From the NCBI GenBank assembly GCA_050331735.1, contig JBHJGN010000001.1, forward strand, positions 37,869 to 101,868: DNA of 64,000 bases, in the 5' to 3' direction. Position numbers and translations under genes: made by a program. Below are positions 6,549 through 64,000 of the stretch, piece by piece (position 1 is the stretch's first letter; each line of letters begins with the position of its first letter). Source of the DNA: Cyanophyceae cyanobacterium. Lineage in GTDB: Bacteria > Cyanobacteriota > Cyanobacteriia > Cyanobacteriales > JBHJGN01. The notes beneath the pieces are model-generated. The model searched no databases and was not told the origin of the DNA. It was given only the letters and a program-made list of their open reading frames with translations.

Positions 6549-6594
6549 CGCTAATAGAGAACTAGCTGATTCTGCGACCGTGTTCTGAACCCAG

Positions 6595-6942: not shown

Positions 6943-7012
6943 GTAGATCTTCGGTGATACACAGAGATATTTCTATTTTACTGTACCGAATAGGAAGCCG
7001 AAGTCCGAAAAA

Positions 7013-7537
7013 CTAACTAACGTGAGGTTTAATTGGGGTAGCTTCTTGAGTGGCTTGGGTATCCAGCTCAAAATACTGGTGAAACTTATCCGTTAACTCT
7101 AGCCAGTAAGAACGGCCATCAGCTTGACGGCGTTTGCGCACAAACCCAAGCTGCACTAGCTCCTGAATTTGTCCGTAGGCACTGCTCCCCCGGAGTTCAA
7201 TCAAAGCCGTTTGTAGGACGGGAGATTTCAGGGCGATCGCCGCGAGCGTTCTTAGAGTACCAGTACCGAGTTCTGCTGGCACCAAATTATGCAGCAGCCC
7301 CGCAAACGGCGGACGTAACTGGAGAGCATATCCCCGAGAAGTTTCGACCACTTCTAAAGCGCTGTCTCGATGGGCATAATCTGCCATCAGCTCAATCAGG
7401 GCGGCTTCTGTGGCCGGGCGATCGCTCTGCACGTACTGGGCAATTTCTGCTAGAGAAAGAGGCTGTCCTTTGAGGTACAGCACCGCTTCAATACGAGTAG
7501 CTAATCGCAACTTCTGCCTCCATAGACGCTCACTCAA
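7013..7537 (-). CDS. scpB: segregation and condensation protein B (SMC-Scp complex subunit ScpB)
   Basis: 174 aa with TTG start. IEAVLYLKGQPLSLAEIAQ... is followed by a second winged-helix-like half (LRTLAAIALKSPVLQTALIELRG), typical of ScpB. Confidence 0.8.
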   Translation of the reverse strand: MSERLWRQKLRLATRIEAVLYLKGQPLSLAEIAQYVQSDRPATEAALIELMADYAHRDSALEVVETSRGYALQLRPPFAGLLHNLVPAELGTGTLRTLAAIALKSPVLQTALIELRGSSAYGQIQELVQLGFVRKRRQADGRSYWLELTDKFHQYFELDTQATQEATPIKPHVS

Positions 7538-7715
7538 TTAAGCCTTAATTTATCAGTAGACGCTGAGCGGTGACCAGTGGCCAGACCAAGTAGCTTACTG
7601 CTCACTCTGGCATTGCTGCCCATCGTCATAATTGCCTAGACCAAACTCGTTTAAAGACAATCCCCCATCAACAATTATCCCACCTAATCCTTACCGCTCC
7701 AGCAACCCCCTTACT

Positions 7716-8561
7716 CTAACCAAGCTGTCTGCCAGTTAACTCGACGAAAATATCTTCTAAGTTAGATTCGCGACTCATCATGCCCGTTTTATCCGGCTGG
7801 GAGTCAAGATAACGATGAGCTGCGGCGAGATCGGCAAAGAATTTGTATTCTAAACGGTCGCCTCCTTGCACGACGAGTCCCTTGCCGTAGCGAGAGCGCA
7901 GGGCTTCAGGAGTCCCCAACTCGATCAGTCGTCCCGCATTCATAATGCCAAGGCGATCGCACAAAAATTCGGCCTCTTCCATGTAGTGAGTGGTCAGTAC
8001 AATGGTCATTCCTTGGCGATTAAGATCTCGAATGATTTCCCACAGACGACGACGAGTTTGTGGATCTAAACCAACAGTAGGTTCGTCTAAAAAGAGCACC
8101 TGGGGATAATGCAGCAGCGCTCTTGCAATCTGCAAGCGGCGCTTCATCCCGCCAGAAAGAGTTTTAGCAAGGGCATCCCGGCGCTCGGTTAGCTCTACAT
8201 ACTCTAGCCATTGCTCAATTAACTGCTGCCGTCTCGGATGCGGAATATGGTGCATACGCCCGTGAAACTCCATGTTCTCCCACACCGAGAGGTCGCCGTC
8301 AACGCTAGTTTGCTGCAAAACAACCCCGATGTTCTGTTTAATCTTGGCTGGTTGACTAATCGGGAATCCCGCTACCTCAATCTGACCTTGAGTTGGCTTG
8401 GTCAGAGTAATCAACATCCGAATCGTGGTTGTTTTTCCGGCTCCATTAGGACCGAGTAAGCCAAACATTTCTCCAGCTTCAATTGAGAAAGACAAACCAT
8501 CGACGACTGGAACCTGTTTATAGAGCTTGTAAACGTCTTTAAGAACAACAGCGGCAACCAT
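7716..8561 (-). CDS. ABC transporter ATP-binding protein (ABC-2/DrrA-like exporter ATPase)
   Basis: Walker A GPNGAGKTT, signature LSGGMKRRLQIARAL, Walker B LFLDEPTVGLD. No permease gene adjacent. Confidence 0.85.
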   Translation of the reverse strand: MVAAVVLKDVYKLYKQVPVVDGLSFSIEAGEMFGLLGPNGAGKTTTIRMLITLTKPTQGQIEVAGFPISQPAKIKQNIGVVLQQTSVDGDLSVWENMEFHGRMHHIPHPRRQQLIEQWLEYVELTERRDALAKTLSGGMKRRLQIARALLHYPQVLFLDEPTVGLDPQTRRRLWEIIRDLNRQGMTIVLTTHYMEEAEFLCDRLGIMNAGRLIELGTPEALRSRYGKGLVVQGGDRLEYKFFADLAAAHRYLDSQPDKTGMMSRESNLEDIFVELTGRQLG

Positions 8562-8676
8562 AGAATTAACTTTTCAGAGAAGTGTGGGGAAAGAACAAAG
8601 GGACAAGCAAGCGCTTTAAGCAAGCCTTGAGGAGCAGCTCAATCCTGAATGACCATTTATAATCTACAATCTTCTG

Positions 8677-8946
8677 CTATTCAATAATGCTCGCTTCCCA
8701 ATCGCTGTCTGGATACTCAATTTCCCGGAGAGTTTTCCAACCTGAATGCCAGAGAGCCTCATCTTTAAGCTGTTTGGCATTGACCCAAAACCGCACACTG
8801 GGGTCGCAAGAGGCCACCATCTCAGCAAATACCCACTGGCCCTGATTTTTCCGGTTGATCACCTGAAAATGACGCCAGCCCCAGGTTTTTTGTCTGGCAG
8901 TCCACTTGGAGCCGAGGAGATGAGGAAATTTGAGTTTTTTCGTCAT
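8677..8946 (-). CDS. tryptophan-rich small conserved protein (TIGR02450-like)
   Basis: Internal ATG at 8946 gives 89 aa, MTKKLKFPHLLGSKWTARQKTWGWRHFQVI..., with 8 Trp. The longer track ORF (to 9102) overlaps the divergent wza-like start and is probably over-extended. Confidence 0.55.
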   Translation of the reverse strand: MTKKLKFPHLLGSKWTARQKTWGWRHFQVINRKNQGQWVFAEMVASCDPSVRFWVNAKQLKDEALWHSGWKTLREIEYPDSDWEASIIE

Positions 8947-9091
8947 TTTCACTATTGCGTCGCTACTATAGGTTATGACTATCAGGAAAGCAAGATCCTC
9001 GTAAAGAGGGGCTAGGACTGCCTCAAAAGTATTAGCAAAATTATTTTTTGCCGCCAATTCGGTCATTAATAGTGTTAATCTAATCGCAATT

Positions 9092-10543
9092 GTGCATACC
9101 AATCACTTCGACAGTTGTTCTATGAGGTTCTTCGCTGTTTTTAGTTTATCGGCTCAGTGGCTCCCCACGGCTGGCCTTCTGCTGAGTGCTTCCTTCTTGC
9201 CGCCAACCCTAGCTCAGCCTGCCCCAGCCCTGCCCTCTCTCGGCGCAAGCGTTAATTCGGTAGAAACCGACTATACGCTAGGGGCGGGCGATCGCCTCCG
9301 CATTGATATTTTGCAGGTTGAAGAGTTCAGCGGCGAATATCTGGTATTGGTCGATGGCACCATCAGCTTACCTCTAGTTGGCAGAATTCAGGCCGAAGGA
9401 CAAACAATTCCGCAGGTTTCTACGGCTGTTAGTCAGGCCTACACTCAGTACTTAAAGCGTCCCGTTGTTACCGTTAGTCTGCTGTCGCCTCGTCCTCTTA
9501 AGCTCGCTATTTCTGGAGAAGTCAATCGCCCCGGTTCCTATACGGTCGATCTTAACGAGACGGGAAAATTTCCCTCGGTAACCGATTTAATTAGGCAAGC
9601 CGGAGGATTGAGAGCTACGGCGAATATTCGTTCTGTTCAGGTGCGCCGCTTTCTAGAGGGCAGAGAACAGGTTTTAAACGTTAACCTGTGGGAGCTTCTC
9701 GAACAGGGAAATCTGGCTCAGGATGTGACTCTGCGCGATGGAGATACCGTCATCATTCCGACCCAAGACAGAATTGATGTTGCAGAAACGTTCCAGCTTG
9801 CCGATGCCAGCTTCGGTATCGCCACTAATCAGCCCGTCAACGTTGCCGTTGTCGGCGAGGTTAACCGTCCTGGGTCTTACCAGGTAACGCCCCAGCAGAT
9901 CACAAGAGACACCGGACAAAGCGTTCCGCTACCGCCTAGACTCACTCAGGCAGTTGCCCAAGCTGGAGGCATTGAACCGCTAGCTGACGTTCGTAACGTT
10001 GAGGTTCGTCGCTTAACTCGCTCTGGGGCGGTGCAAACGATTGAGGTCAATCTTTGGGAGCTGCTTCAATCAGGCAACACCTATGAAGATGTCATTCTCC
10101 AAGAGGGCGATACCATTGTGATTCCTACCGCTACAGACCTCGACCCAGAAGAAGCCGAATCATTAGCATCAGCAAGCTTCGCTCCAGAAACAATTCAGGT
10201 CAACGTAGTCGGTGAAGTAGAAAACCCCGGCGTTGTCCAAGTTGACCCCAATACGCCCCTCAATCAGGCACTGCTCGCCGCCGGCGGATTTGACGAGCAA
10301 AGAGCCGACGAAAGTGAAGTCGAACTCATTCGCCTCAATCCAAACGGAACAGTCTCTAAACGAGAGGTAAACATCGATTTGTCTGCTGGGATCAACGAGG
10401 AAACTAACCCCACCTTACGCAATAACGACGTGGTTGTGGTAGAGCGCTCCGGATTTACTCAGGCAACGGATGTTTTAGGAAATGTCTTAAGACCCGTTGT
10501 GAATGCATTTACGCTATTTCAGCTATTTGGAGTCGATTTCTAA
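9092..10543 (+). CDS. polysaccharide export protein (Wza-like, Poly_export + repeated SLBB domains)
   Basis: Signal-like N-terminus. YTLGAGDRLRIDIL....GEY.VLVDGTISLPLVGRIQAEGQT is the Poly_export motif. Three reiterated soluble-ligand-binding beta-grasp units (..NRPGSY.V...). GTG start at 9092, alternative ATG at 9122. Confidence 0.85.
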   Translation: MHTNHFDSCSMRFFAVFSLSAQWLPTAGLLLSASFLPPTLAQPAPALPSLGASVNSVETDYTLGAGDRLRIDILQVEEFSGEYLVLVDGTISLPLVGRIQAEGQTIPQVSTAVSQAYTQYLKRPVVTVSLLSPRPLKLAISGEVNRPGSYTVDLNETGKFPSVTDLIRQAGGLRATANIRSVQVRRFLEGREQVLNVNLWELLEQGNLAQDVTLRDGDTVIIPTQDRIDVAETFQLADASFGIATNQPVNVAVVGEVNRPGSYQVTPQQITRDTGQSVPLPPRLTQAVAQAGGIEPLADVRNVEVRRLTRSGAVQTIEVNLWELLQSGNTYEDVILQEGDTIVIPTATDLDPEEAESLASASFAPETIQVNVVGEVENPGVVQVDPNTPLNQALLAAGGFDEQRADESEVELIRLNPNGTVSKREVNIDLSAGINEETNPTLRNNDVVVVERSGFTQATDVLGNVLRPVVNAFTLFQLFGVDF

Positions 10544-10598
10544 CGGACTAGCTAGTCTAAATGTAATGTGAGGATACTGAGGAGTGAAAGAGTGACGA

Positions 10599-12884
10599 AT
10601 GAAAAATACTCATTCTGAAGAGTTGAGACTGCCGAGCGGAAATAATGGATATCAAGCTTATCCATTTCCTCCAGCTCCCCCGGTTCGCGTCGATGAAGAT
10701 GAATCTAATCTCGATCTCCGCCAGCTCTGGACGGTGGTTCGGCATCGGATGCGCTTGTTTGCTGGGGTGGCGTTAGGCGTGACGACCGTGATTGGATTGT
10801 GGACGTTTAATCAAACGCCTAAGTACCAAGGAGATTTCGATTTGCTGATTGAGTCAGCAACCGGAGGAGAATCAAACGAATCGTTTCTGGGCTGGGGTGT
10901 GCCTCTTGTTGATTATGAAACAAAAATTGAGCTTCTCAGCAGCCCGAGCGTATTAGAACCCATTGCCGAGCAAATTGCTCAACAGTATCCAGGAACAACC
11001 TACAAAAAGATTGTTGGCGCACCGCTGAGAATTACTCAAGTTAAAGACACCAAGATCCTACAGGTAACCTATCAAGATGAAGATCCTGAGAAAGTGGAGT
11101 ACGTGCTTGAGCAGATTGCTCAGGGGTATCTAAACTATTCTCTCTCTGAACGGCAAATAGAAATTAATCAGGGAATTGAGTTTGTTGAAGAGCTGTTGCC
11201 GGGGTTGCGAGAGCGAGTAGATGGTTTGCAGGAAAGATTGCAAAAATTTCGGCAACAGTATAATCTTCTCGATCCAGAAAATCAGGCAGGAACGTTATCC
11301 AATCAGCTTATTAATTATGAATCTCAGTATTTCGAAACGCAGGTAGAGCTCGGCGAAGCCCGTTCTCGCTATCAGCTTTTACAGAACCAACTGGGTCTCG
11401 ATCCTCAAGAGGCATTAGTATCTAGCTATTTGAGTGAGTCTCCCCGCTACCAAAATCTGCTCAATCAGCTTCAGGAAATAGAAATTGAGCTGGCTGAACA
11501 GTCGGCCATATTTCGCGAAGGGACACCAACCATTGCCGCCCTTGAAGAAGAACGAGCTAATTTACTGCCTCTCCTTCAGCAGGAAGCACAAACTGTTCTA
11601 GGACAAGTTTTTAATCCAGATAACATAGAAACCTTAGCGTCACCCAGCTCCCTGCGCCTAGAGCTGAAGCAAGACTTCATCCTCACGGCAAACGAGCTTC
11701 AAATTCTGGAGCTGCGCCGTCAAGCTTTAGAGCAAGCCACTCGTTCGCTCAATCAGCAGGTCCAGCAAATGCCGGTTTTGGCTCGCTATTACACAGATAT
11801 TCAGCGAGAACTTGAAGTAGCCACAGAAAGCCTCAATCGCTTCCTCAAGGCGCGGGAAGAGCTGCAGTTTGAGGCGGCGCAAAAAGCCTTGAAATGGAAG
11901 ATTATTGCGCATCCTGAAGAACCTTCTAATCCAATCTCTCCGCGCCCGGTTCAAGCCATAAGCTTTGGCATTGTTGCTGGCCTGTTGCTGGGTCTTGTTG
12001 CGGCTTACATTGCTGAACGACTCGATCCCGTTTTCCACTCCTCCGAGGAACTCAAAGACGCGATTAAACTGCCAATTCTGGCTAATATTCCCATTCAAAA
12101 GGATCTAGACGTCATTGAGCAAACCTTAGAAGGCAGCGTTCCTCAGCTACAAATTGGCGATCGCAAGCTCAACATCACTTCCCCTGCTAATGGTCATCAG
12201 AAAGAGCAGCGCTATCAGTCTTCTCCCTTCTTGGAAGCGTTTCGTTCACTCAATACTAATATTCGCTTGTTGGGGTCTGAAACTCGCAATACGTCTTTGG
12301 TGGTGAGTTCTTCAGCTCCAGCCGAGGGAAAATCCACCGTTTCGGTTCATTTGGCTAAAGCAGCGGCGGCTATGGGTCAGCGGGTGCTCATTATCGATGC
12401 TGACCTGCGACGACCGCAGGTTCACAAGCGTCTTGGCCTTGAACAGGATGGCCCGGGGTTAAGTAACGTCATTGCTGATGGCTTAGATGTTGAAGAGGTC
12501 ATTCAGCGAGTGCCGCAGACAGACAACTTGTTTGTGCTTACGGCTGGAGAAACCGCTCCCGATCCGCCTAGACTGCTCTCTTCGAGAAGAATGCATCAAA
12601 TCATGGAGCATCTCCAGAAAGAAAATAATTACGATCTCATCGTTTACGATACCCCGCCTCTGCTGGGATTCGCAGACGGTAGACTGCTCGCTCCTCGCAC
12701 CAACGGGGTAGTCTTGGTCGTCAAAATGAGTAAAACCGATCGTAGTGCTCTTAAACAAACCATCGACCAGCTCAAGCTAGCGCGAGCTTCCGTCCTGGGC
12801 GTGGTTGCTAATGGAGTTAGCCGTCACGGTCATGGCTCCTACTACTACAGTCACTACTATCGCTACTACAATAAAGAGCGGTAA
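10599..12884 (+). CDS. polysaccharide chain-length determinant / BY-tyrosine kinase (Wzc/GumC-like)
   Basis: 761 aa. Wzz-type TM-coiled coil-TM periplasmic region. C-terminal P-loop SSAPAEGKST, Walker B-like LIIDADLRRP and DLIVYDTPP. Terminal tyrosine cluster GSYYYSHYYRYY. Adjacent to the wza-like gene. Confidence 0.85.
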   Translation: MKNTHSEELRLPSGNNGYQAYPFPPAPPVRVDEDESNLDLRQLWTVVRHRMRLFAGVALGVTTVIGLWTFNQTPKYQGDFDLLIESATGGESNESFLGWGVPLVDYETKIELLSSPSVLEPIAEQIAQQYPGTTYKKIVGAPLRITQVKDTKILQVTYQDEDPEKVEYVLEQIAQGYLNYSLSERQIEINQGIEFVEELLPGLRERVDGLQERLQKFRQQYNLLDPENQAGTLSNQLINYESQYFETQVELGEARSRYQLLQNQLGLDPQEALVSSYLSESPRYQNLLNQLQEIEIELAEQSAIFREGTPTIAALEEERANLLPLLQQEAQTVLGQVFNPDNIETLASPSSLRLELKQDFILTANELQILELRRQALEQATRSLNQQVQQMPVLARYYTDIQRELEVATESLNRFLKAREELQFEAAQKALKWKIIAHPEEPSNPISPRPVQAISFGIVAGLLLGLVAAYIAERLDPVFHSSEELKDAIKLPILANIPIQKDLDVIEQTLEGSVPQLQIGDRKLNITSPANGHQKEQRYQSSPFLEAFRSLNTNIRLLGSETRNTSLVVSSSAPAEGKSTVSVHLAKAAAAMGQRVLIIDADLRRPQVHKRLGLEQDGPGLSNVIADGLDVEEVIQRVPQTDNLFVLTAGETAPDPPRLLSSRRMHQIMEHLQKENNYDLIVYDTPPLLGFADGRLLAPRTNGVVLVVKMSKTDRSALKQTIDQLKLARASVLGVVANGVSRHGHGSYYYSHYYRYYNKER

Positions 12885-13528: not shown

Positions 13529-14182
13529 ATGGTTTTGTTTGGATTTAATAAAAAGCGCCTGCCGTCTCCGGAGGAAGCCTTACCGGGACGCACGGAGCCC
13601 ATCCCGGTTCCAGAGCATCACTTCGTTAATGGCAATCCCCTGAAGCCTCCTTTCCCAGAAGGCATGGAAATGGCTCTATTTGGTCTGGGCTGCTTCTGGG
13701 GAGCAGAACGCCGATTCTGGCAGCAGCAAGGAGTTTATGTAACCGCCGTTGGCTATGCTGGCGGGAGCACTCCTAACCCAACCTACCAGGAAGTCTGTAC
13801 TGGCATGACAGGACACAATGAAGTAGTGCGTGTCGTTTTTGACCCTGAAAAAATTACCTATGAGACACTGCTCAAAGTCTTTTGGGAAAGTCACGATCCC
13901 ACTCAGGGAATGCGCCAGGGCAATGATGTCGGTACGCAGTATCGCTCTGGGATTTACACAACTTCTGCTGCACAAATGCAGCTAGCGCGAGCCTCACAAG
14001 CGGCCTTTCAGGAAGCTTTAGAGCAAGCTGGATACGGCAAAATTACAACAGAAATTCAAGAAGCTCCCGAATTTTATTATGCGGAAGGCTATCATCAGCA
14101 GTATCTGGCTAAGAATCCTAACGGCTACTGCGGCTTAGGCGGAACCAACGTGAGTTGTCCCGTTGGCAACTTGACTGCCTAG
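13529..14182 (+). CDS. msrA: peptide-methionine (S)-S-oxide reductase MsrA
   Basis: Catalytic motif [47 protein letters not shown]. Confidence 0.92.
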
Positions 14183-15132: not shown

Positions 15133-16446
15133 ATGTTTCATTCTGATTTTTCAATTTCTGCTAGCTCGGATTTTATTGCTCTTTGTCAGTCGCAGGTCGC
15201 TTTACTATCCCAAATCGGAGCCGTCTGGAGTGCTGTATACGTAACAGAAGGGCTGGCAGAGAACTATGCAGACAAGCTCGTTGCTGTTGCTGTCTATCCT
15301 CGTGAAGCCGCTCAAAAATCTGCTCTTCAAGATCAGCGGCCAGAGGTTCCGGCTGCTTTGAGCAAGCTTAATCTTCCCACCCAACTTCCTTCTCGCTTAC
15401 TCACGGCTGTTCCAGAGGAAGCAGGGGCGACTGCTGAGACAGCAATTGAATTTCCTGGGGTACAGGAATTACAAGTCTTGCCAAAATATCAGCTAGTGCT
15501 TCCACTCAGTTATCAGGAGGGAGTGGTGGGACTACTGGTAACGCGGCGCGAAGACAGACCGTGGCTTCAAGGAGAACTCGCTCAAATTCACAATGTTGCT
15601 CAGACCCTTGCGATCGCCCGCCTGCTCGATCGTCACCAGGCGTGGTACAAGCAGCAGTTGGAGGCTCAGCAGCAGATTCGTATCCAAGAACGCGATCGCC
15701 TCGAAACCCTGCTTCATCAGCTCCGTAATCCACTAACCGCCCTGCGCACCTTCAGCAAGCTGCTGCTCAAGCGTTTACTGCCAGAAGACCGCAACCATCC
15801 CGTTGCCAACAGCATCCTGCGAGAAAGCGATCGTCTCCAGGACTTATTGCAGCAGTTCGAGCAGGTGCAGCAGCCTCTAGACTCATCTTTACTTACCCTT
15901 GAAGCTTCGACTACACCAGCCCTCCCCGAAGCCACCTCCTTTATCCAGGCCGAAGCAACAGCCGTCGCTGTTGAGGAGCTTTTAGAACTGCTGCTGGTTT
16001 CTGCCCAGGCGATCGCTCAAGAACGAAACATCGAGCTAACGGCAGACCTGCCGCCGATGCCCCCCGTACGAGGAAATGCGAAAGCTCTACGGGAAGTGTT
16101 TAGCAACTTGCTCGATAACGCCTTAAAATACACTCCGGCGGGCGGTCAGGTAAGGATTTATAAGGTTCCGCAGCGAGGCATTTGGCAAGGAATTGCCATT
16201 CAAGACACGGGCTACGGCATTCCCGCCTCCGAGCAGAAACGAATTTTTGAGCGTCACTATCGAGGTATACAGGCAGATAGTGAAATTCCCGGTAGCGGAT
16301 TAGGACTAGCGATCGCCCGAGAACTCGTTGAGCAAATGCAGGGAAAAATCGAGCTGATCAGCCCCAATCCGGAGCAGACAACACCGCTACCAGGCACGAC
16401 ATTTATTGTTTGGCTTCCTACCGCTGACAGTTCAGTACAGAATTAG
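15133..16446 (+). CDS. GAF-domain sensor histidine kinase (Hik2/CSK-like architecture)
   Basis: 437 aa. N-terminal GAF-like region, H-box LHQLRNPLTALRTFSKLL, N-box FSNLLDNALKYTP, G-boxes IQDTGYGIP and GSGLGLAIAREL. Soluble, no TM. The Hik2 assignment is tentative. Confidence 0.85.
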   Translation: MFHSDFSISASSDFIALCQSQVALLSQIGAVWSAVYVTEGLAENYADKLVAVAVYPREAAQKSALQDQRPEVPAALSKLNLPTQLPSRLLTAVPEEAGATAETAIEFPGVQELQVLPKYQLVLPLSYQEGVVGLLVTRREDRPWLQGELAQIHNVAQTLAIARLLDRHQAWYKQQLEAQQQIRIQERDRLETLLHQLRNPLTALRTFSKLLLKRLLPEDRNHPVANSILRESDRLQDLLQQFEQVQQPLDSSLLTLEASTTPALPEATSFIQAEATAVAVEELLELLLVSAQAIAQERNIELTADLPPMPPVRGNAKALREVFSNLLDNALKYTPAGGQVRIYKVPQRGIWQGIAIQDTGYGIPASEQKRIFERHYRGIQADSEIPGSGLGLAIARELVEQMQGKIELISPNPEQTTPLPGTTFIVWLPTADSSVQN

Positions 16447-16601
16447 GCGCAGGGAAACGGGGAAATTGTCCCTGACGGGACGGGGAAAGGGCAAAAAGTT
16501 CCTCCGAACGGGGAAGGGGGAATTCGTCTCTGAACGGACAGAGAAAGAACACAGGGGTCAAGGAACCAGCTATCGGTCCTCTTTTCCCGCGCCGGCAGCG
16601 C
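16447..16601. repeat. full-length hairpin + G-tract composite repeat
   Basis: Fills the whole spacer between two convergent stop codons (TAG 16444-16446, TTA 16602-16604). G-rich modules include GTCCC-TGAC-GGGAC+GGGGAAAGGGCAAA (16468-) and GTTC-CTCC-GAAC+GGGGAAGGGGGAA (16498-). Core AAAGAACACAG is at 16544-16554. C-rich end is CTCTTTTCCC-GCGC-CGGCA-GCGC. Confidence 0.85.
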
Positions 16602-17012
16602 TTAAACTTCTTGATGGATTTGCTGCCGATATAGCTTCTGAATAATTTTCAAAAGTCTGTAAAAAACTCCTTTCGGAGTTTCTCGGGCCGGATCGAGGCC
16701 CTGTAAGCGCGTGAGCAGTTTAGCTTCTTGAGTATCGATGTTGCCATCGCTGTAGATGAGAGCGCTCATAGCCTTCAGCAGACGCTCATAATCTTCCTGG
16801 GAAGGATGATCGCCTAAGTAATCTTCCAACCAGCCATAACATTCCGCTGGCTTAACGGGTTTTAATTCAAACAGAAGCGGTCTAATTTCTACATCGTCAG
16901 CCACTCCTTGTTCGGCTGCCATGCGACGTAAATAACGCCGTTCTTCTGGCTGTACCATGCCATCAATCCAAGCCGCCCCAATGAGAATCTTGAGTAGTTG
17001 TTTAGTGTTCAT
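16602..17012 (-). CDS. TerB-like (tellurite resistance TerB family) protein
   Basis: 136 aa. KILIGAAWIDGMVQPEERRYLRRMA and ALIYSDGNIDTQEAKLL are the paired helix motifs of the TerB fold. The start overlaps the rsmB stop by 4 nt (ATGA). Confidence 0.6.
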   Translation of the reverse strand: MNTKQLLKILIGAAWIDGMVQPEERRYLRRMAAEQGVADDVEIRPLLFELKPVKPAECYGWLEDYLGDHPSQEDYERLLKAMSALIYSDGNIDTQEAKLLTRLQGLDPARETPKGVFYRLLKIIQKLYRQQIHQEV

Positions 17013-20382: not shown

Positions 20383-20389
20383 GGAGAAT

Positions 20390-20424
20390 GAGCAGTGAGC
20401 AGTTACCAGTTACCAGTTACCAGT
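20390..20424. repeat. heptamer-periodic tandem tract (GAGCAGT x2, TACCAGT x3)
   Basis: Five consecutive 7-mers ending in CAGT, 8 nt upstream of the hydrolase start codon. STRR-like. Confidence 0.8.
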
Positions 20425-20493
20425 GTAGTGCTTAGTCCTGGTATCTTGAGGATAGAATATTGTTGAGCGAAATACCATGAGTCTATTTGAGCA

Positions 20494-27774: not shown

Positions 27775-27795
27775 CTTCCCTTTTCCCTTTCCCCC
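27775..27795. repeat. solo C-rich G-tract fragment of the repeat family
   Basis: CTTCCCTTTTCCCTTTCCCCC in the anmK / kinase intergenic region. Confidence 0.45.
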
Positions 27796-33450: not shown

Positions 33451-33492
33451 GTCCTCGGTCATTGGTCCTTTGTCCTTCGTTGTCCCAGTGAC
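33451..33492. repeat. heptamer-periodic tract (GTCCTCG GTCATTG GTCCTTT GTCCTTC GTTGTCC CAGTGAC)
   Basis: 7-nt periodicity starts 3 nt after the sigma factor stop codon. Confidence 0.6.
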
Positions 33493-34062: not shown

Positions 34063-34097
34063 CTGTCCTTTTCCCTTTCCCCCTTCCCCTTGACCCC
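34063..34097. repeat. C-rich fragment of the hairpin + G-tract repeat family
   Basis: CTGTCCTTTTCCCTTTCCCCCTTCCCCTTGACCCC, preceded by the partly complementary AAAGGAAAAGACA. Confidence 0.55.
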
Positions 34098-45833: not shown

Positions 45834-45878
45834 CAGCCGCAGCTTGGGAAAAGGGGAAGGGGTAAAGGGGAAAGGAAA
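45834..45878. repeat. G-rich fragment of the hairpin + G-tract repeat family
   Basis: GCCGCAGCTTGGGAAAAGGGGAAGGGGTAAAGGGGAAAGGAAAC, 140-185 nt upstream of the rpsB start codon. Confidence 0.6.
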
Positions 45879-46027
45879 CAATTTTCTATCAACAATCAGC
45901 CATTAACAATTAACCAGAATGTCAGGTTGCTCAAGCTTTCTAAGCTTGAGAAGCTGAGAAGCTGCCTTCACTCCTAATGACTGAGAGAGTACCGCTACAC
46001 TAAAAGGCAACGATAAAAAATAGCACA

Positions 46028-55423: not shown

Positions 55424-55465
55424 AAACAGTGACCAGTGGCCCATCAACAATCAACAATTAACAGC
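55424..55465. repeat. heptamer-periodic tract (AAACAGT GACCAGT GGCCCAT CAACAAT CAACAAT TAACAGC)
   Basis: Begins immediately after the M50 protease stop codon (TAG 55421-55423) and ends 5 nt before the next ATG. Confidence 0.65.
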
Positions 55466-56601: not shown

Positions 56602-57540
56602 GTGGAGCACAGCGATTTGACGGATACAGTTATTCCGATGGCCCCAGAGGGGTTTAAATCCGGATTCGTCGGAATTGTGGGACGACCCAACGTGGGGAAA
56701 TCGACTCTCATGAATCAACTGGTGGGGCAGAAAATCGCCATCACCTCTCCCGTTGCTCAGACGACGCGCAACCGCCTCAGAGGAATTTTGACCACCGACC
56801 GCGCCCAGCTCATCTTTGTCGATACCCCCGGAATCCACAAACCCCACCACGAACTCGGTAAGGTGCTGGTTAAAAACGCCCAGAGAGCGATCGCCTCGGT
56901 GGATGTGGTGCTGTTGGTTGTTGACAGTACCGGGGTTGCCGGAGGCGGCGATCGCTTTATTGTCGATCTGCTCAAGCAGTCTTCTGTTCCGGTGATTCTT
57001 GGTCTCAATAAGTCGGATCTCCAGCCAGCCGAGTATCACCCCATCGATGATACCTATCGGCAAATTGCCGAGGAACACAACTGGTCTATTGTCAAGTTTT
57101 CCGCCTTGACAGGAGCCGGACTAGCATCGCTTCAGCAACTCCTGAGCGACCGTCTCGAACCAGGCCCCTATTACTATCCTCCCGATTTAGTGACTGACCA
57201 GCCAGAGCGGTTTATTATGGGCGAACTGATTCGAGAACAAATCCTGTTGCTGACCCGTCAAGAAATTCCCCATTCAGTCGCCATCACCGTAGAAAAAGTT
57301 GAAGAAACCCCCCGCATTACCCGAGTTTTTGCCGCCATCAACGTTGAAAGAGACTCTCAAAAAGGCATTCTCATTGGTAAAAAAGGCAGTATGCTCAAAG
57401 CCATTGGCACTCAAGCAAGAGAGCAAATGCAAAAGCTCATTGCCGGAGATGTCTATCTTGAGCTATTTGTCAAAGTTCAGCCGAAGTGGAGACAGTCGCG
57501 GTTACGCCTAGCCGAACTCGGCTACCGAGTTGAAGACTAG
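56602..57540 (+). CDS. era: GTPase Era
   Basis: G1 GRPNVGKSTL, G3 DTPGIH, G4 NKSD, C-terminal KH domain. GTG 56602 or ATG 56638 as the start. Confidence 0.92.
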   Translation: MEHSDLTDTVIPMAPEGFKSGFVGIVGRPNVGKSTLMNQLVGQKIAITSPVAQTTRNRLRGILTTDRAQLIFVDTPGIHKPHHELGKVLVKNAQRAIASVDVVLLVVDSTGVAGGGDRFIVDLLKQSSVPVILGLNKSDLQPAEYHPIDDTYRQIAEEHNWSIVKFSALTGAGLASLQQLLSDRLEPGPYYYPPDLVTDQPERFIMGELIREQILLLTRQEIPHSVAITVEKVEETPRITRVFAAINVERDSQKGILIGKKGSMLKAIGTQAREQMQKLIAGDVYLELFVKVQPKWRQSRLRLAELGYRVED

Positions 57541-57761
57541 CGCCGCAGGCGCGGGAAAAGGGGAAAAAGTTGCTCCGCAACGGGGAAAGGGGAAATTATT
57601 GAGCTTATTTCTTAGCTCTGTGTTCTTTTGCTGTCCCGCACCGGACAGATTTCCCCTTCCCCGTCCCAACCGGGACAATTTCCCCTTTTCCCTTTCCCCA
57701 TCGCGGAGCGATTTCCCCCTTCCCCGTCCCAACCGGGACAATTTGCCCGCGCCTGCGGTGC
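57540..57761. repeat. full-length hairpin + G-tract composite repeat (largest copy)
   Basis: Starts on the G of the era stop codon. G-rich arm 57540-57596, core containing CTGTGTTCTTT (57618-57628), C-rich arm 57631-57761. There is an internal direct duplication (57649-57681 / 57711-57745). Terminal hairpins are GCGCC-GCA-GGCGC and GCGCC-TGC-GGTGC. Confidence 0.9.
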
Positions 57762-57835
57762 TTCTTTACCAAAATTAATTATTTAAATGGTATTTCCGGG
57801 CGTAATCCTGGGTACGTTAGCTCTAGCTTCAAGGG

Positions 57836-60800
57836 TTGCTAGCTTATCGTTGGCTCAGGAAATTCGCTGTGCAAAAGAAATCTCTCACCGGAAAAACGAC
57901 GATTCCAGAATATCTCGACCAAGCAGAGTTCAAGGGAGAAGTTTTGCTTCAACTTGGACAAATGCTTCAGATGTTGAAGCAAGGGAATCACCCCGAATGC
58001 CGCAAACAGCTACAGGAGCAATGTCAGCAGCTATCAGAGCTTGGCCAAGAAGCCAAGCTTTATCAGTGGGTGACGCTGCTGCAAACGGCTCAAAGAGCGA
58101 TCGCCAATCGCGACAATCCGTTTCAGGAAACGGCGAAAAGAATTATCAGAGATATCAAACGGGCGTTAGAAAAAGTAATAGCAGGCTGCGGTGATGAAAT
58201 TGAACTCACTCAAGAACTGCAAGCTCTTGCTCCTCTTGAAAAGAGTTTAGAAGAGCCGCAATCAGTATCCAAACCTTCTGAAGGGGAGGCTAGCTCCCCC
58301 TCTGATGAGCTGCTCTCGCTGTTTGCGGATGTCTCTGATGAGGCTCGAACTGTCATCGAAGCGCCGCCTGACGACTTCGGCGACTACTGGCTTGAGGCAG
58401 CATCAGCCGCCGATCCTCCAGAATCAGCGGCTGAATTGGCCAGCTTGTTTAGCTCCTCTGAAGCGACTGAGGATGCGGCAACTCCGTCTTTAACCGACGA
58501 GAGCAGCTTATTTGGCGAGACGGAAGCGGAATTGAGTTCGTCCGATGAAATTCTTGAGCTGTTTGAGCCTGAGCCATCGAGCCAGCAAACAGACTCAGCC
58601 GATGCCCCGGTAGAGTTAGCAAGCCTGTGGGAGGATGAAGACGAACCAGAGTTATTAGCTGCCGCTCAGCCAGAGCCGTTGTTGTCGCCAGACCTGACAA
58701 CCGACGATTTCACCGTCCGTGATTCTGAATCGATGCCGCCGTCAGCAATACTAGCCCGTCAAGATTGGGAACTCGTTTACTATGGTCTTGACGAGCTAGA
58801 GGCTTTGCTCGAGCAAACCCCTCAAACCTGGTTTGCGTCTTTTGATGAGTTAGAAGCGTCGCTAGCAGGCGACTCCAGCGAGCAGGCGAATTTCTTGGAG
58901 TCGTTAGGGAGCCCCCTCGAGGCGCTGCCTGATAGCGAGCGTCAGCTACTAGACGAGGGGACTACCGAGCTTCAGAAACTGCTCGAGGAGGCCAGCCAAG
59001 TAACGCCACAGCCTCAATCGGCCAGTAGCCAACCGCTGGCGACAGCGTTTGAACAAACCATGCGGGTGCCAGTGAAGCAGTTGGATACTTTAAATAACCT
59101 CATTGGGGAACTGGTCGTCAACCGCAATACCCTCGAGCAAGATCATGGCAGGCTGCGGCAGTTTTTAGACAGTTTACTGCATTACGTCCAGGGTCTGAGC
59201 GATATTGGCGGTAGAATGCAGGAACTCTACGAGCGATCGCTGCTGGAGGGAGCACTGCTAGCAAGCCGTCACGGAGAGCGCAACGATTGGTCTGAACCGA
59301 GCGCTAGCAGTAGCGATCGCAGTCTTAATGCCCTAGAGATGGACAGATTTACGGGCTTTCATACCCTCTCCCAAGAGATGATTGAACTGATCGTGCGCGT
59401 CCGAGAGTCTGCTTCGGATATCCAGTTTTTGGTAGACAATACCGAACAGGTTTCTCTATCCCTCCAGCAAATTACCTCTCAGCTTCAAGAAGGTCTCAAT
59501 AAAGCGCGCATGGTGCCTTTTTCTCAAACGGCAGACCGTTTACCCAGAGCCGTTCGGGAAATTTCGCGGCGCTTAAATAAGCAAGCGCAGCTCAAAGTAG
59601 AAGGACGAGATGTTCTCATCGATAAGATGCTCCTCGAGCAGCTCTACGATCCGATGACTCATTTGGTGAACAACGCCATTACTCACGGCATCGAATCGCC
59701 AGAAGAACGCCAGCAGCAAGGGAAACCTCTCTGCGGTCAGGTGACCGTTAGTGCTTTTCTCCAGGGAAATCAAACGATCATTTCCATTGCCGATGATGGC
59801 GCGGGCATTGATTCGCGCAAAGTCAAAGCAAAAGCCTTAGAAAAAGGACTGCTCTCCCCGGCCAAGGCTAAAGCTCTGGCGCATCAAGATTGCTACGAAT
59901 TTTTGTTTCATCCCGGTTTTAGCACCAAAGACAAAGCGGACGACTTCGCCGGTCGCGGAGTGGGGATGGATGTAGTGCGGACCAGTCTAGAGGCCATTCG
60001 CGGCAAGATTGGCATTGATTCTACTCTGGGGAAAGGCACGACCTTTACCGTTCGTCTGCCGCTAACGCTCAGCATTTGTAAGGCTCTCTGCTGTTTGAGC
60101 AATCAGTTCCGCATTGCTTTTCCCATGGATGGCGTAGAAGACATGCAGGACTACGCCGCGTCAGATATTCAGACCGATGCAGAGGGTCAGCCGTGCGTTC
60201 CGTGGCGCAATACCCTCCTGCCTTTCCGTTCTCTCAAAGAACTGCTGTCCTATCGTCGCTCGGTTGGTCGGAGAATGAGAGGCACTCAGTCAGAAGACAC
60301 CGTGTCGATTGTCGTCCTGCGAGGAGCGGGAACCTTACTCGCTGTCGAGGTCGAACGGGTACTTGGGGAGCAGGAAATCGTCATTAAGCAAATTGAAGGC
60401 CCCATTCCTAAGCCTTTGGGCATTGCCGGAGCAACTGTACTTGGAGACGGTAGCGTCATGGCCATTGGTGATGTGCTGGAATTAATTGAAATCGCTCAAG
60501 GAAATCACAGCCTAGAGGGGCAGCTCTGGCAGAAGACCATTATTTATGCTCAACCAGAGGCGATCGTCGATCAAAAACCAGCGGTGTTAATTGTTGACGA
60601 CTCCATTACTGTTCGAGAACTGTTGTCGATCAGCTTTAGTAATGCCGGATATCGCGTTGAGCAAGCACGAGACGGCTCAGAAGCCTGGGAAAAGCTTCGC
60701 TCTGGACTAGCGTGCGATATCATTTTCTGCGACGTAGAAATGCCGAGAATGAACGGTCTAGAACTACTCTCCTGTCTGCAAAAAGACGAACGGTTAGCGT

Positions 60801-61411
60801 CGATTCCGGTGGCCTTACTGACCTCTCGCGGTGCAGCCCGTCATCGTCAAGTTGCCGTTGAGCTTGGAGCTAGAGGATACTTCACCAAACCTTACACCGA
60901 GAAAGATTTGTTGGATGCGGCGCAAAAGATGATTGCTGGAGAAGTGTTAGTCTCTGGCAGTCCTCGATCTAAATCAACAGCAGATAAACCGCCAGAAGAC
61001 GCAGAACCACCGGCAGAACCAACCGTGCTCATTGTCGATGACTCAGTGATGGTGCGAGAAATGCTGTCGATGACGTTTAAAAAAGCCGGTTATCAAGTGG
61101 AACAAGCCAGAGATGGACAAGATGCCCTGGAAAAGCTGCGCTCTAGCTTGCCCATCGATCTCGTTTTCTGCGACATCGAGATGCCGAGAATGAACGGACT
61201 AGACCTGTTAGCCCGTCTTCAGCAAGATCCCACGCTTTCTCAGCTCCCCGTAGCGATGATTACTTCCAGAGGAGCCGAACGTCACCGCAATATTGCCCAA
61301 GAACGAGGAGCTAAGGGCTATTTTACTAAACCCTACATCGAGAAGACCCTCTTAGAAGCAGCGAAGGAATTACTCAAAGGAGAAAACCTCATGGCGCAAG
61401 CAGCCGATTAA
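57836..61411 (+). CDS. CheA-like hybrid histidine kinase (dimerisation-HATPase-CheW-REC-REC), PilL-C/PixL-like, no recognisable Hpt
   Basis: 1191-aa ORF, start uncertain (TTG 57836, GTG 57869, ATG 57962). H-kinase dimerisation segment MRVPVKQLDTLNNLIGELVV. HATPase N-box HLVNNAITHGIE and G-boxes DDGAGID, GRGVGMD. CheW-like domain. Two receiver domains (60584-60943, 61025-61384). Confidence 0.85.
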   Translation: MLAYRWLRKFAVQKKSLTGKTTIPEYLDQAEFKGEVLLQLGQMLQMLKQGNHPECRKQLQEQCQQLSELGQEAKLYQWVTLLQTAQRAIANRDNPFQETAKRIIRDIKRALEKVIAGCGDEIELTQELQALAPLEKSLEEPQSVSKPSEGEASSPSDELLSLFADVSDEARTVIEAPPDDFGDYWLEAASAADPPESAAELASLFSSSEATEDAATPSLTDESSLFGETEAELSSSDEILELFEPEPSSQQTDSADAPVELASLWEDEDEPELLAAAQPEPLLSPDLTTDDFTVRDSESMPPSAILARQDWELVYYGLDELEALLEQTPQTWFASFDELEASLAGDSSEQANFLESLGSPLEALPDSERQLLDEGTTELQKLLEEASQVTPQPQSASSQPLATAFEQTMRVPVKQLDTLNNLIGELVVNRNTLEQDHGRLRQFLDSLLHYVQGLSDIGGRMQELYERSLLEGALLASRHGERNDWSEPSASSSDRSLNALEMDRFTGFHTLSQEMIELIVRVRESASDIQFLVDNTEQVSLSLQQITSQLQEGLNKARMVPFSQTADRLPRAVREISRRLNKQAQLKVEGRDVLIDKMLLEQLYDPMTHLVNNAITHGIESPEERQQQGKPLCGQVTVSAFLQGNQTIISIADDGAGIDSRKVKAKALEKGLLSPAKAKALAHQDCYEFLFHPGFSTKDKADDFAGRGVGMDVVRTSLEAIRGKIGIDSTLGKGTTFTVRLPLTLSICKALCCLSNQFRIAFPMDGVEDMQDYAASDIQTDAEGQPCVPWRNTLLPFRSLKELLSYRRSVGRRMRGTQSEDTVSIVVLRGAGTLLAVEVERVLGEQEIVIKQIEGPIPKPLGIAGATVLGDGSVMAIGDVLELIEIAQGNHSLEGQLWQKTIIYAQPEAIVDQKPAVLIVDDSITVRELLSISFSNAGYRVEQARDGSEAWEKLRSGLACDIIFCDVEMPRMNGLELLSCLQKDERLASIPVALLTSRGAARHRQVAVELGARGYFTKPYTEKDLLDAAQKMIAGEVLVSGSPRSKSTADKPPEDAEPPAEPTVLIVDDSVMVREMLSMTFKKAGYQVEQARDGQDALEKLRSSLPIDLVFCDIEMPRMNGLDLLARLQQDPTLSQLPVAMITSRGAERHRNIAQERGAKGYFTKPYIEKTLLEAAKELLKGENLMAQAAD

Positions 61412-61609
61412 GTCCCTTCGGGACGGGAAAAGGGGAAACAGTTCCTGCGGAACGGGGAAGGGGGAAAGGAAAATTCCTCCGGGACGGGGAAAGAACACAG
61501 AATCAAGGACTAGGCTGAGTAACCCCCTTTACCCTTTTCCCCTTCCCCTTTTCCCGCGCCTGTGGCGCTATTCCCTTTACCCTTTACCCTTTACCCGCGC
61601 CGACGGCGC
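61412..61609. repeat. full-length hairpin + G-tract composite repeat
   Basis: Starts 1 nt after the TAA of the cheA-like gene. Modules GTCCC-TTC-GGGAC+GGGAAAAGGGGAAA and GTTCC-TGC-GGAAC+GGGGAAGGGGGAAA. Core AAAGAACACAG at 61490-61500. C-rich arm with two terminal hairpins GCGCC-TGT-GGCGC (61556-61568) and GCGCC-GAC-GGCGC (61597-61609), separated by (CCCTTTA)x3. Confidence 0.9.
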
Positions 61610-61650
61610 TAAAATAGCGACAGACGAAAATTCAACAGATCGTTAACACA

Positions 61651-63240
61651 ATGCTTCTCAAAATCTCTCAGAAACAATTTTTGGCGTGTTCTTTTTTCCT
61701 GGGGTTGCTTTTTAGCCCATCCGTCAGAGCTGAAGAGATCGAAATTAAAGTTGGCATTGTTCAGCGCTTTGGAGATGAAGAGACTGATGAACTGACCATC
61801 GCCTCTCCTCAAGGAGATACGCTCACTCTCCGGGGTGAAGCGGTGGAGCTAGAGGCCAACCAAGTCGAACTAGAAGTGGAAATGCGGCCTTTGGCTATAC
61901 CGGCGGTGGAAGAACGGTTGGTGCTCAGCGATCACGCCACCTTTGAAACAGCAGAATACAGCGCTCAACAGTGGGAAGCCCTTGGCATTGAAGTAGAAGT
62001 CACTCAGCCCGAACGCTGGCAGGTCTGGGCCAAACGAGACGTGTATGAAACTCCGCTGCTGCGTCGGTGGCTGTTGCAGAGTCTCCAGGCTCAAGGATAC
62101 GCCGAGCCGTATTTAGATACTCAGGTTGTTTTAGAGAAGCCGCAGATTATTTTAAATGTTGATGGCGATCGCACGGCGGTCAGCGAGCTAGAAATTACCG
62201 CAGCAGGGGCGTTGATCCAGGTGAAAGAAGCCCCGGAGCAGAAAACTCACCTTTATCCAGGCTCTCTCAAGCTTCAGCCCAATGCCTACGGCACGTTTAC
62301 CTTAGTTAATGAAGTCCCCTTAGAAAGCTACCTGCGGGGCGTGGTTCCTCACGAAATTGGTCCAGCGGCCCCGAAAGGAGCCGCCGAAGCGCAGGCTATT
62401 ATTGCTCGGACCTATGCCCTCCGGAATCTGCGGCGGTTTCAAGCGGACAACTATGAGCTGTGCGCGAGCGTTCACTGCCAGGTTTATTTTGGGTTAGCCG
62501 ACACTCATCCCCAGGCCGACCAGTCGATCGCCGCGACCCGAGGCTTGGTGTTAACCTATCAAAATGAACTAGTAGACGCGCTGTATTCCTCTACTACCGG
62601 CGGGATTACGGCCCCGTTCAGCGATATTTGGAACGGCAGCGATCGCCCCTACCTTAAAGCCGTAATCGACTCGCCTCAGCCGGTTTGGGATCTTTCTCAA
62701 CGCTCCTTGGCTGACGAACAGGCGTTTCGGGACTTTATTTCCCTCCAGCAGGGATTCAATGAAACGGGCCGAAACGTTTTTCGCTGGAGCAAGCAGGGCG
62801 ACCTCGAGCAGCTCAACGAAGATTTACAGAAGTATCTAGAGAAAACTAATCATCCTCTGGCTGACTTCAACACCATTGAGAGCCTGGAGATCGTCGAGCG
62901 ATCGCCCTCGGGCCGAATTCTCAAGCTGATCGTGCAAACGGATCGGGGTTTGCTCGAACTGCATAAAACTGAGGTTCGCAGTGCTTTGGGTCCGCCCCGC
63001 AGTACGCTATTCTACATCGAGCCGATTTACGACGAAGCGCAAGTCCTCAAAGGATACACCTTTATTGGTGGTGGTTTCGGTCACGGGGTAGGCTTAAGTC
63101 AGTTTGGTTCCTACAATCTGGCCAATCTCGGCTGGTCTGCTGAGCAAATTTTGTCTTTCTACTACCCCGGCACCACTCTCCAGTCTCTTGACGAATCTGT
63201 TGTCTTTTGGCGGGCAGAAAAACCAAAAGAGCTAAATTAG
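61651..63240 (+). CDS. SpoIID/LytB domain protein
   Basis: 529 aa, signal peptide. SpoIID core YLRGVVPHEIGP....EA.KAQAI.ARTYAL, CAS.HCQVY.G, VL.Y....V.ALY.S..GG.T. Confidence 0.8.
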   Translation: MLLKISQKQFLACSFFLGLLFSPSVRAEEIEIKVGIVQRFGDEETDELTIASPQGDTLTLRGEAVELEANQVELEVEMRPLAIPAVEERLVLSDHATFETAEYSAQQWEALGIEVEVTQPERWQVWAKRDVYETPLLRRWLLQSLQAQGYAEPYLDTQVVLEKPQIILNVDGDRTAVSELEITAAGALIQVKEAPEQKTHLYPGSLKLQPNAYGTFTLVNEVPLESYLRGVVPHEIGPAAPKGAAEAQAIIARTYALRNLRRFQADNYELCASVHCQVYFGLADTHPQADQSIAATRGLVLTYQNELVDALYSSTTGGITAPFSDIWNGSDRPYLKAVIDSPQPVWDLSQRSLADEQAFRDFISLQQGFNETGRNVFRWSKQGDLEQLNEDLQKYLEKTNHPLADFNTIESLEIVERSPSGRILKLIVQTDRGLLELHKTEVRSALGPPRSTLFYIEPIYDEAQVLKGYTFIGGGFGHGVGLSQFGSYNLANLGWSAEQILSFYYPGTTLQSLDESVVFWRAEKPKELN

Positions 63241-63277: not shown

Positions 63278-64000
63278 ATGTCTGAACCACTTCTTGAAGT
63301 CCCTTACGTAGCGCTTCCGCCAACTCAGGACGAGCTACCGTGCGATGACGATATTCCGATGGAAACTCAGCGCCACAAATTCCAGATGGATTTACTCATC
63401 GAGCAACTGCTGCTGTGGCTGGAGACGCGAGACAACGGCTATGTTAGTGGCAATATGTTTGTTTACTACAGCATGGCGCAGATTCGCAATCAGGACTTTC
63501 GGGGGCCGGATTTTTTTGCCGTTTTAGGCGTTCCTAAAAAAGAACGTAAAAGCTGGGTCGTTTGGGAAGAAGGCAAGGGCCCCGATGTGGTCATTGAACT
63601 GTTGTCTGACAGCACCAGAGATCAAGACAAGACGGAGAAAAAAGCCATCTATCAAAACCAGATGCGCGTTCCAGAATACTTCTGGTTCGATCCGTTTAAC
63701 CCTCAAGACTGGGCTGGTTTTGCCTTACGAGATGGAGTTTACGAACCCCTGGTGACAGACTGCCAACGCTTTGTGAGTCAGCAGTTACAGTTAGCTTTGG
63801 TTCAGTGGGACGGAACCTATAGAGGCGTGAATACCACTTGGCTGCGATGGGCAACCTTAGCTGGAGAACTACTGCCGACAGAGCGAGAAAAAGCGACGCA
63901 AGAAGAGCAGCGGGCCGAGCAAGCTGAACAGCGGGCCGAGCAAGCTGAACAGCGGGCTAGAGAGTTAGCCGCACAACTGCGAGCAATGGGCATCGAACCA
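63278..64000 (+). CDS. Uma2 family (DUF820) endonuclease, 3' end beyond the window
   Basis: Not on the ORF track because no stop lies inside the window. ATG 63278 is in frame to 64000 (241 codons). Core motifs YVSGNMFVYY, PDFFAVLGVPKKERKSWVVWEEGKGPDVVIELLS.ST...D...K...Y, VPEYFWFDP. Tail EQRAEQAEQRAEQAEQRARELAAQLRAMGIEP. Confidence 0.8.
   Translation, partial: MSEPLLEVPYVALPPTQDELPCDDDIPMETQRHKFQMDLLIEQLLLWLETRDNGYVSGNMFVYYSMAQIRNQDFRGPDFFAVLGVPKKERKSWVVWEEGKGPDVVIELLSDSTRDQDKTEKKAIYQNQMRVPEYFWFDPFNPQDWAGFALRDGVYEPLVTDCQRFVSQQLQLALVQWDGTYRGVNTTWLRWATLAGELLPTEREKATQEEQRAEQAEQRAEQAEQRARELAAQLRAMGIEP

Follow-up and report, generated by a model that had tools for sequence, protein, structure and literature searches.

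Among the intergenic repeats of cyanobacteria, the STRR class of G-rich heptamer repeats was reportedly described by Mazel and co-workers in 1990, and the small dispersed repeats (SDRs) of Nostoc punctiforme are said, in a 2008 account by Elhai and co-workers, to be nested in heptamer arrays and in elements resembling MITEs (miniature inverted-repeat transposable elements), between the genes of filamentous cyanobacteria. Bacterial MITEs include the cyanobacterial Nezha. The G-rich heptamers of Nostoc PCC 7120, GGGGA(T/C)T, and of Xanthomonas, GGGAATC, are found mostly 0-50 bp after a stop codon and on the coding strand, with some overlap (Rehm et al. 2015, PMC4692102), and the extragenic palindromes of the REP/BIME and REPIN kinds occur in inverted sets that fold into a long hairpin or 'clover' (Bertels and Rainey 2011, PMC3116915). 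Here, we describe a family of heptamer-plus-hairpin repeats in a 64,000-nt stretch of a Cyanophyceae cyanobacterium genome (contig JBHJGN010000001.1 of assembly GCA_050331735.1; hereafter, the window), in which two full-length copies flank a 3.6-kb cheA-like kinase gene lying between era and a SpoIID/LytB-domain gene. An original prediction, made from this DNA alone, had likened the arrangement to a cassette bounded by inverted repeats and had named transcriptional insulation and chance as alternatives. Our comparison indicates that the flanking pair very probably consists of lineage-specific, non-coding mosaic repeats in an old native gene row, and not of cassette ends.

The gene row itself provides the main line of evidence. 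We collected Era-anchored loci with 10-kb flanks from one genome per species (80 loci) and searched them with tblastn for the genes that follow era; the closest kinase homologues are carried by three long European Nucleotide Archive (ENA) contigs, L081, L082 and L203. The order era, kinase, SpoIID, with the kinase in the same orientation, recurs in seven loci other than the window: the three ENA contigs, two metagenome-assembled genomes (MAGs) of Prochloraceae in which AstE precedes era (L005 and L048), Aphanothece hegewaldii (L062) and Pleurocapsales LEGE 06147 (L013). The last of these has an insert of about 6 kb between era and the kinase gene (4879-11252), and the era-kinase slot therefore accepts larger insertions too. 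Collinearity with the window extends over 11 genes in L203, with one extra Uma2 gene, the shared row reading SnoaL, DUF2996, TM2, DUF3110, SIS, M50, AstE, Era, kinase and SpoIID. The pair era-kinase is present in Oscillatoria PMC 1068.18 (L039), and era lies directly upstream of the kinase gene in Crocosphaera subtropica ATCC 51142; in Gloeothece PCC 7424, the kinase gene is found elsewhere. On this sampling, the order of the three genes is ancestral.

The repeat family is absent from the loci of all syntenic relatives, and in none of the 80 Era-anchored loci does era stand next to spoIID without the kinase gene. The expectation attached to the cassette, that the kinase gene and its flanks would be present or absent as a unit, was thus not borne out: the kinase gene occupies the slot, the elements are missing, and there is no empty site. 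Because related genomes keep the gene order without the elements, we reject insertion, inversion or recombination of a cassette as the origin of the arrangement.

What relatives carry in the corresponding spacers points the same way. The kinase-SpoIID spacer of L081 and L082 is 72 nt long and repeat-free, and the spacers of L005, L048, L062 and Crocosphaera are short and plain. The C-terminus of Era and the position of its stop codon are the same in the window as in relatives, so the copy downstream of era was inserted after this stop codon without altering it. Between era and the kinase gene, L081 and L082 contain heptamers of the types TTAGCTT and CCCTGCC together with a GC hairpin of 60 nt, the two contigs differing from each other by a repeat indel. 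A run of GGGGAAA is present in L082 at 7472-7495. In L203, heptamers of the types GGGCATT, AGGTTGA and TCCCCTA begin right after the TAG of era (9811-9900), and a GGGCATT array of 5.9 units follows right after the TAA of the kinase gene (13625-13671). The kinase gene of L203 is therefore flanked on both sides by a different repeat, which argues for permissive or repeat-attracting 3' spacers rather than for a cassette. The kinase-SpoIID spacer of the window is too diverged for alignment with those of L081, L082 and L203, and of the spacer DNA only the leader of the kinase gene could be aligned.

The second line of evidence comes from the repeats. The window contains three full copies, A (16447-16601, plus strand, 155 nt), B (57540-57761, minus strand, 222 nt) and C (61412-61609, plus strand, 198 nt), which are mutually homologous in these orientations with nhmmer E-values of 1e-7 to 1e-16. 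Copies B and C do bracket the kinase gene and have the sequence originally described, with C starting on the base directly after the TAA stop; the first base of B is the G of the TAG stop of era. Between two convergent genes, a HisKA/HATPase_c histidine kinase gene (15133-16446, plus strand) and a TerB-like gene (16602-17012, minus strand), copy A takes up the whole interval of 155 nt from one stop codon to the other. All three copies share an 11-mer core, which reads CTGTGTTCTTT on the plus strand in B (57618-57628) and on the minus strand in C and A, where the plus strand accordingly reads AAAGAACACAG (61490-61500 and 16544-16554, respectively). About 0.03 exact matches to an 11-mer are expected in 128 kb of two-strand sequence (128,000/4^11), and here the internal position of the core, like its flanks (GGAC-N4-core-RR, similar throughout), is shared by copies that are separated by 3.7 and 41 kb. 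A fourth exact match to CTGTGTTCTTT, at 48494, lies inside an MscS-type channel gene without arms, and we attribute it to chance.

When the core is read as AAAGAACACAG, the left arm consists of GGGGAAA-type heptamers (an example of such G-rich sequence is GGGAAAAGGGGAAAAAGTTGCTCCGCAACGGGGAAAGGGG) broken up by palindromes of 12-14 nt with 5-bp stems, namely GTCCC-N3/4-GGGAC, GTTCC-N3-GGAAC or GTTGC-N3-GCAAC, and ATCGC-N3-GCGAT. Next come the core region (GGAC-N4-AAAGAACACAG-RR..., about 35 nt long) and then a right arm of TTTCCCC-type heptamers that ends in TTTTCCC-GCGCC-N4-GCGC-T. This right end, TTTTCCCGCGCC-N4-GCGCT, is identical in 3/3 copies, against 0.03 matches expected. The number of modules differs among copies, giving their lengths of 155, 222 and 198 nt. 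Copy B has terminal GCGCC-N4-GGCGC palindromes and, in its arms, GTCCC-N4-GGGAC, GTTGC-N3-GCAAC and ATCGC-N3-GCGAT, and the right arm of copy C has two GCGCC-N4-GGCGC palindromes with CCCTTTA heptamers between them. Within copy C, Tandem Repeats Finder (TRF) detects periodicities of 29 and 41 nt, and period-7 arrays are called in the window at 2548, 27776, 45846, 57679, 61525 and 61573. A core and a fixed right end cannot arise by local slippage, so this genome has seen at least two copying events of a composite unit whose core is unique and whose ends are fixed. An 82-codon open reading frame (ORF) across copy B (57530-57778) was rejected as a gene, being low-complexity repeat sequence.

The arms are self-complementary, with the left one G-rich and the right one C-rich on either strand. 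Copies are consequently alike on both strands, and their orientation can be told only from the core and the few bases beside it. Between B and C, identity is 59% in direct and 54% in inverted alignment, and the longest exact shared stretch is 15 nt direct and 20 nt inverted. The original claim that the two copies are inverted relative to each other is therefore correct for the core and does not extend to the element as a whole.

Four coreless fragments of the family occur elsewhere in the window. The most extensive, at 2540-2600, combines C-rich heptamers with a GTTGCGGAGCAAC palindrome, and 35 nt of it (2556-2590) are 91% complementary to 57561-57595 in copy B. The others are a short run of TTCCCTT/TTTCCCC at 27776-27795, C-rich heptamers at 34066-34096 in a convergent gap, and a GGGGAAA run of 4.3 units at 45846-45879, in the divergent gap between rpsB and an AI-2E transporter gene. 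Beside the first fragment, we note a 705-residue ORF on the minus strand (2532-4649) without a Pfam match, whose last ~20 codons, ending in GGGRETVAPQREKGKGERERRY before the stop, are read from the repeat (2532-2600). The fragment may have replaced or extended the 3' end of this ORF and given it its stop codon.

The explanation by chance, which the original prediction had considered in view of how often the element sits at gene ends, is the one we favor for the bracketing. On a simple gene map of the window with 53 intergenic gaps, the probability that two of three full copies fall in neighboring gaps is 0.11 (0.10-0.14 when divergent gaps are excluded), and it rises to 0.6-0.7 when the four partial copies are counted. 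Opposite core orientation adds only a factor of 0.5. For an arrangement picked after reading the whole window, the bracketing is unremarkable.

We thus envisage that two spacers of an old gene row each gained a copy independently, directly behind a stop codon, and that double flanking in opposite core orientation would be a coincidence, helped by two spacers that tolerate repeats. The family would spread by copy-and-insert in the manner of MITEs or REPINs, supplemented by heptamer slippage in the arms, and arm length would change through gain or loss of hairpin-plus-heptamer modules of about 29-41 nt. In transcripts, the copies would form large 3'-end hairpins, and copy B would probably help to terminate transcription of era before the conserved leader that belongs to the kinase gene.

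Several points weigh against this account. The nearest relatives are distant, with at most 75% amino acid identity in the conserved part of the kinase. Only three full copies are at hand, and density across the genome is extrapolated from 64 kb. Mobility is something we infer, and target-site duplications are ambiguous: TAA stands at either side of C and TA/TTA at either side of A, but these flanks are themselves stop codons, and B shows no clear duplication. Finally, every gene-proximal end of the full copies (4/4, of which two belong to A, one to B and one to C) directly adjoins a stop codon, at a distance of 0 nt. This abutment is tighter than neutral accumulation predicts and hints at targeting or function. 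As a rough estimate, three independent insertions would all fall within 1 nt of a stop with a probability well below 1e-3, because spacers in relatives are 40-190 nt long. Stop-proximal placement as such is already known for this class of repeat, since Rehm et al. report the same tendency (PMC4692102).

The alternative that survives best is selection for function, in which the copies would act as bidirectional terminators, insulators or 3'-end stabilizers that separate the era, kinase and spoIID transcripts. It is compatible with the origin proposed above, and we regard it as possible but less than probable. In all four cases of abutment, the mRNA strand reads stop codon, small GC hairpin and then G-rich heptamers, and copy A, lying between convergent genes, abuts stops at both of its ends. 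The predicted fold of copy B is a single branched hairpin of great length (-124.7 kcal/mol, z -10.3), whose closing GC stem is followed by TTCTTTA; the terminator-like sequence GCGCCTGCGGTGC+TTCTTTACCA lies at 57749-57761, and the conserved leader of the kinase gene starts right after the copy. A scan with a terminator consensus matches this site (57749-57761, +TTCTTTACCA) and one in copy C (61556-61568, +TATTCCCTTT), with 4 matches in 57400-57950 versus 1.0 in shuffles and no more than in shuffles in 61300-61750. The arms contain G-quadruplex (G4) sequence motifs of four or more G3+ runs, and stop-proximal G-rich heptamers have been described with G4 effects in untranslated regions (PMC4692102). 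The occurrence of unrelated heptamer/hairpin composites in the same era-kinase slot of L081, L082 and L203 would also suit a selected role. Against it, C (-86.5 kcal/mol, z -3.2) and A (-59.7 kcal/mol, z -2.2) fold only modestly better than shuffles and have no good U-tracts. The plain spacers of L005, L048, L062 and Crocosphaera, together with the 72-nt spacer of L081 and L082, further imply that no function of the element is required for this gene row. Given the huge hairpin with UUCUUUA, placed between era and the conserved leader, a role as terminator or insulator is plausible for copy B, and the case is weaker for C and A.

Less likely still, and suggested by the abutment, is a previously undescribed mobile family that inserts precisely at TAA/TAG stop codons and thereby installs a 3'-end module terminating or stabilizing transcripts whichever way it is read. 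We put this forward tentatively, from three copies. If true, the module would comprise a GC hairpin, quadruplex-prone G-rich heptamers and a long hairpin. Stop abutment, combined with the presence of unrelated repeats in the same spacers of relatives, means that this gene row could serve to test targeting against selection at gene 3' ends.

An origin without any mobility seems improbable. Copies would then have grown in place from heptamer microsatellites by slippage and would owe their likeness to mutational bias or gene conversion. This would fit the heptamer runs without core or palindromes at 27776, 34066 and 45846 and those of relatives (e.g., L082 7472-7495), the differing module numbers and the 29- and 41-nt periodicities of copy C, as well as the repeat indel that distinguishes L081 from L082 in the same slot. 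It does not explain a non-repetitive 11-nt core with similar flanks at the same position in three copies, nor a right end identical in all three.

Least of all do we credit a cassette, whether the kinase gene and both copies were inserted together between era and spoIID or form an invertible or excisable segment, for example one that switches motility phase. In its favor, the gene is bracketed by copies whose cores have opposite orientation, and the outer ends share 31 nt with 94% complementarity. Against it, the kinase gene holds the same slot and orientation without the elements in seven loci and adjoins era in two more, an era-spoIID empty site is lacking in the 80 Era-anchored loci, GC content and HIP1 density are native, the 64 kb hold no recombinase or transposase, B and C share 54% identity inverted and 59% direct, their longest exact inverted match of 20 nt does not exceed what RecA requires to recombine DNA efficiently, the direct matches would favor deletion as much as inversion, and copy A, 41 kb away, brackets nothing. 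A false lead is thereby removed, in that the kinase gene is very probably neither a mobile nor an invertible chemotaxis cassette.

The cheA-like gene (57836-61411, plus strand) encodes a hybrid histidine kinase with H-kinase_dim, HATPase_c and CheW domains and two REC domains, and no Hpt domain was matched in it by Pfam. Its two tandem receiver domains form a 211-nt direct repeat (60576-60786 and 61017-61227, 73% identical). In alignments with relatives, the kinase shows homology from about residue 18-31 of its 1191-codon ORF onwards, and the GTG start codon of the kinase gene in L082 aligns at window position 57869. For these two reasons, the true start is more likely GTG 57869 than TTG 57836, and the gap between copy B and the kinase gene accordingly becomes 75-107 nt: the distance of 75 nt originally given is right if translation starts at TTG 57836, and it is up to 107 nt with GTG 57869. 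By the same alignment of homologues, the NCBI annotation of an 892-residue product (P0001) probably places the start about 290 codons too late, leaving out the region 57836-58732. As a separate observation, the kinase gene of L081 (8506-12385) is called as two products of 343 and 794 residues, probably through a frameshift in the long-read assembly rather than a real split like that of PilL-N/PilL-C in Synechocystis.

Upstream of the kinase start, about 105 nt are conserved at the DNA level (window 57762-57868, plus strand; L082 9880-10000; L081 8476-8600), including the blocks ATGGTA, GGGTACGTTA and CGYTGGCTCAGGAA, between genomes that share only ~60-75% identity in their kinase proteins. Exactly at the end of copy B, DNA homology to L081 and L082 sets in again, and it continues to the kinase start. 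This stretch may be a promoter, leader or regulatory element.

In composition, the kinase gene is native and not foreign, with a GC content of 0.51-0.535 versus 0.49-0.55 in its neighbors and a HIP1 density of 0.84/kb versus 0.77/kb in its surroundings. It is an orphan, with no adjacent che or pil partner genes, in every genome examined, including Crocosphaera and Gloeothece, and this is the normal state for the putative orthologue group. Its predicted architecture is of the PilL-C/Slr0322/Hik43 type: these are CheA-like hybrid kinases of ~1100 residues that combine kinase and ATPase domains with CheW-like and receiver domains (PMC4632739, PMC7076178, PMC7656254). In Synechocystis PCC 6803, motility, pilus biogenesis and competence depend on PilL-C/Slr0322/Hik43, which is encoded away from pilG-J (PMC4632739, PMC7076178); the window gene likewise lies apart from pilG-J-type partners. 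The gene slr0321 of that strain may be its era. A stand-alone PilL-C-type kinase next to era is thus a conserved cyanobacterial arrangement.

The surroundings are those of a cyanobacterial chromosome, with a GC content of 50% and 49 sites of the HIP1 palindrome (GCGATCGC). All 54 ORFs of the window were scanned with Pfam, and era, the kinase gene and the SpoIID gene with both Pfam and NCBIfam. The ORFs are housekeeping genes, among them era itself (GTPase Era, 56602-57540, plus strand) and the SpoIID/LytB-domain gene (61651-63240, plus strand). The domain content and coordinates of the cheA-like gene between these two were confirmed, and so was its status as the sole che/pil-type gene among the 54 ORFs. 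Pfam likewise detected no transposase, integrase, invertase, recombinase or Y1 transposase among them, and no tRNA or tmRNA was found in the window. Three further intergenic heptamer arrays are unrelated to the GGGGAAA family: TGACCAG in 5.3 units at 20389-20425, GTCCTTG in 3.9 units at 33451-33477, and ATCAACA in 3 units at 55443-55463. The first of these we take to be one mismatch away from the reverse complement of the classical STRR2 unit, TTGGTCA. Downstream of the SpoIID gene and near the window end, CAGCGGGCCGAGCAAGCTGAA forms a perfect 21-nt tandem repeat of 2.4 units (63908-63957).

Searches for the family elsewhere were uniformly negative. Neither nhmmer nor motif counts detect anything comparable in 82 other cyanobacterial genomes, represented by 1.3 Mb of loci, and copy B has no match by blastn in the PLSDB plasmids. 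Rfam 15 gives no match at gathering score in the window, and in E-value mode only miRNA and snoRNA models far below threshold, on the long hairpins. The right end TTTTCCCGCGCCNNNNGCGCT has at least 120 matches in metagenome contigs, but none of the matches listed has heptamer context or the core, and they are due to chance. The family, with its core and set of palindromes, hence matched nothing in the sequences searched, and the kind of repeat to which it belongs is already known.

In comparison with the described systems, the family shares with MITEs a length (155-222 nt) below about 500 bp, a non-coding and intergenic nature, multiple copies (three full and four fragments) in the orientations +, - and +, and terminal inverted repeats. 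The latter are clearest in B, where GCGCCGCAGGCGCGGG pairs with CCCGCGCCTGCGGTGC; in copies A and C, either side ends in hairpin+GGGNAAA, with palindrome types that differ. Its TA/TAA flanks are compatible with TA duplication, though they are at the same time stop codons. Unlike in MITEs, length variation stems from internal modules and not from deletions of a parent element, and there is no cognate insertion sequence within the window. With REPINs, the family has in common short extragenic palindromes in inverted sets that can form a hairpin, a mosaic of variable modules and a location at gene 3' ends. It differs in having at least four palindrome types (GTCCC..GGGAC, GCGCC..GGCGC, GTTCC..GGAAC and ATCGC..GCGAT, all 12-14 nt with 5-bp stems) spaced by heptamer runs and a unique central core that REPINs lack, and no RAYT (Y1 transposase) is encoded within the 64-kb window. 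The SDRs, as reported by Elhai and co-workers, are similar in being tiny hairpin units inside heptamers or larger MITE-like repeats, with no transposase evident nearby; they are reportedly longer, at roughly 21-27 nt, than the palindromes of the window. The STRR repeats and the heptamers of Nostoc and Xanthomonas resemble the family in their tandem 7-nt G-rich units, intergenic location, variable copy number and position near or overlapping stop codons. Here, however, the unit is GGGGAAA, and its short runs are broken by GC palindromes and arranged in two complementary arms around a non-repetitive core, which sets the family apart from a simple microsatellite as a composite element in dispersed copies and adds one lineage-specific example to the poorly understood heptamer-plus-hairpin intergenic repeats of cyanobacteria.

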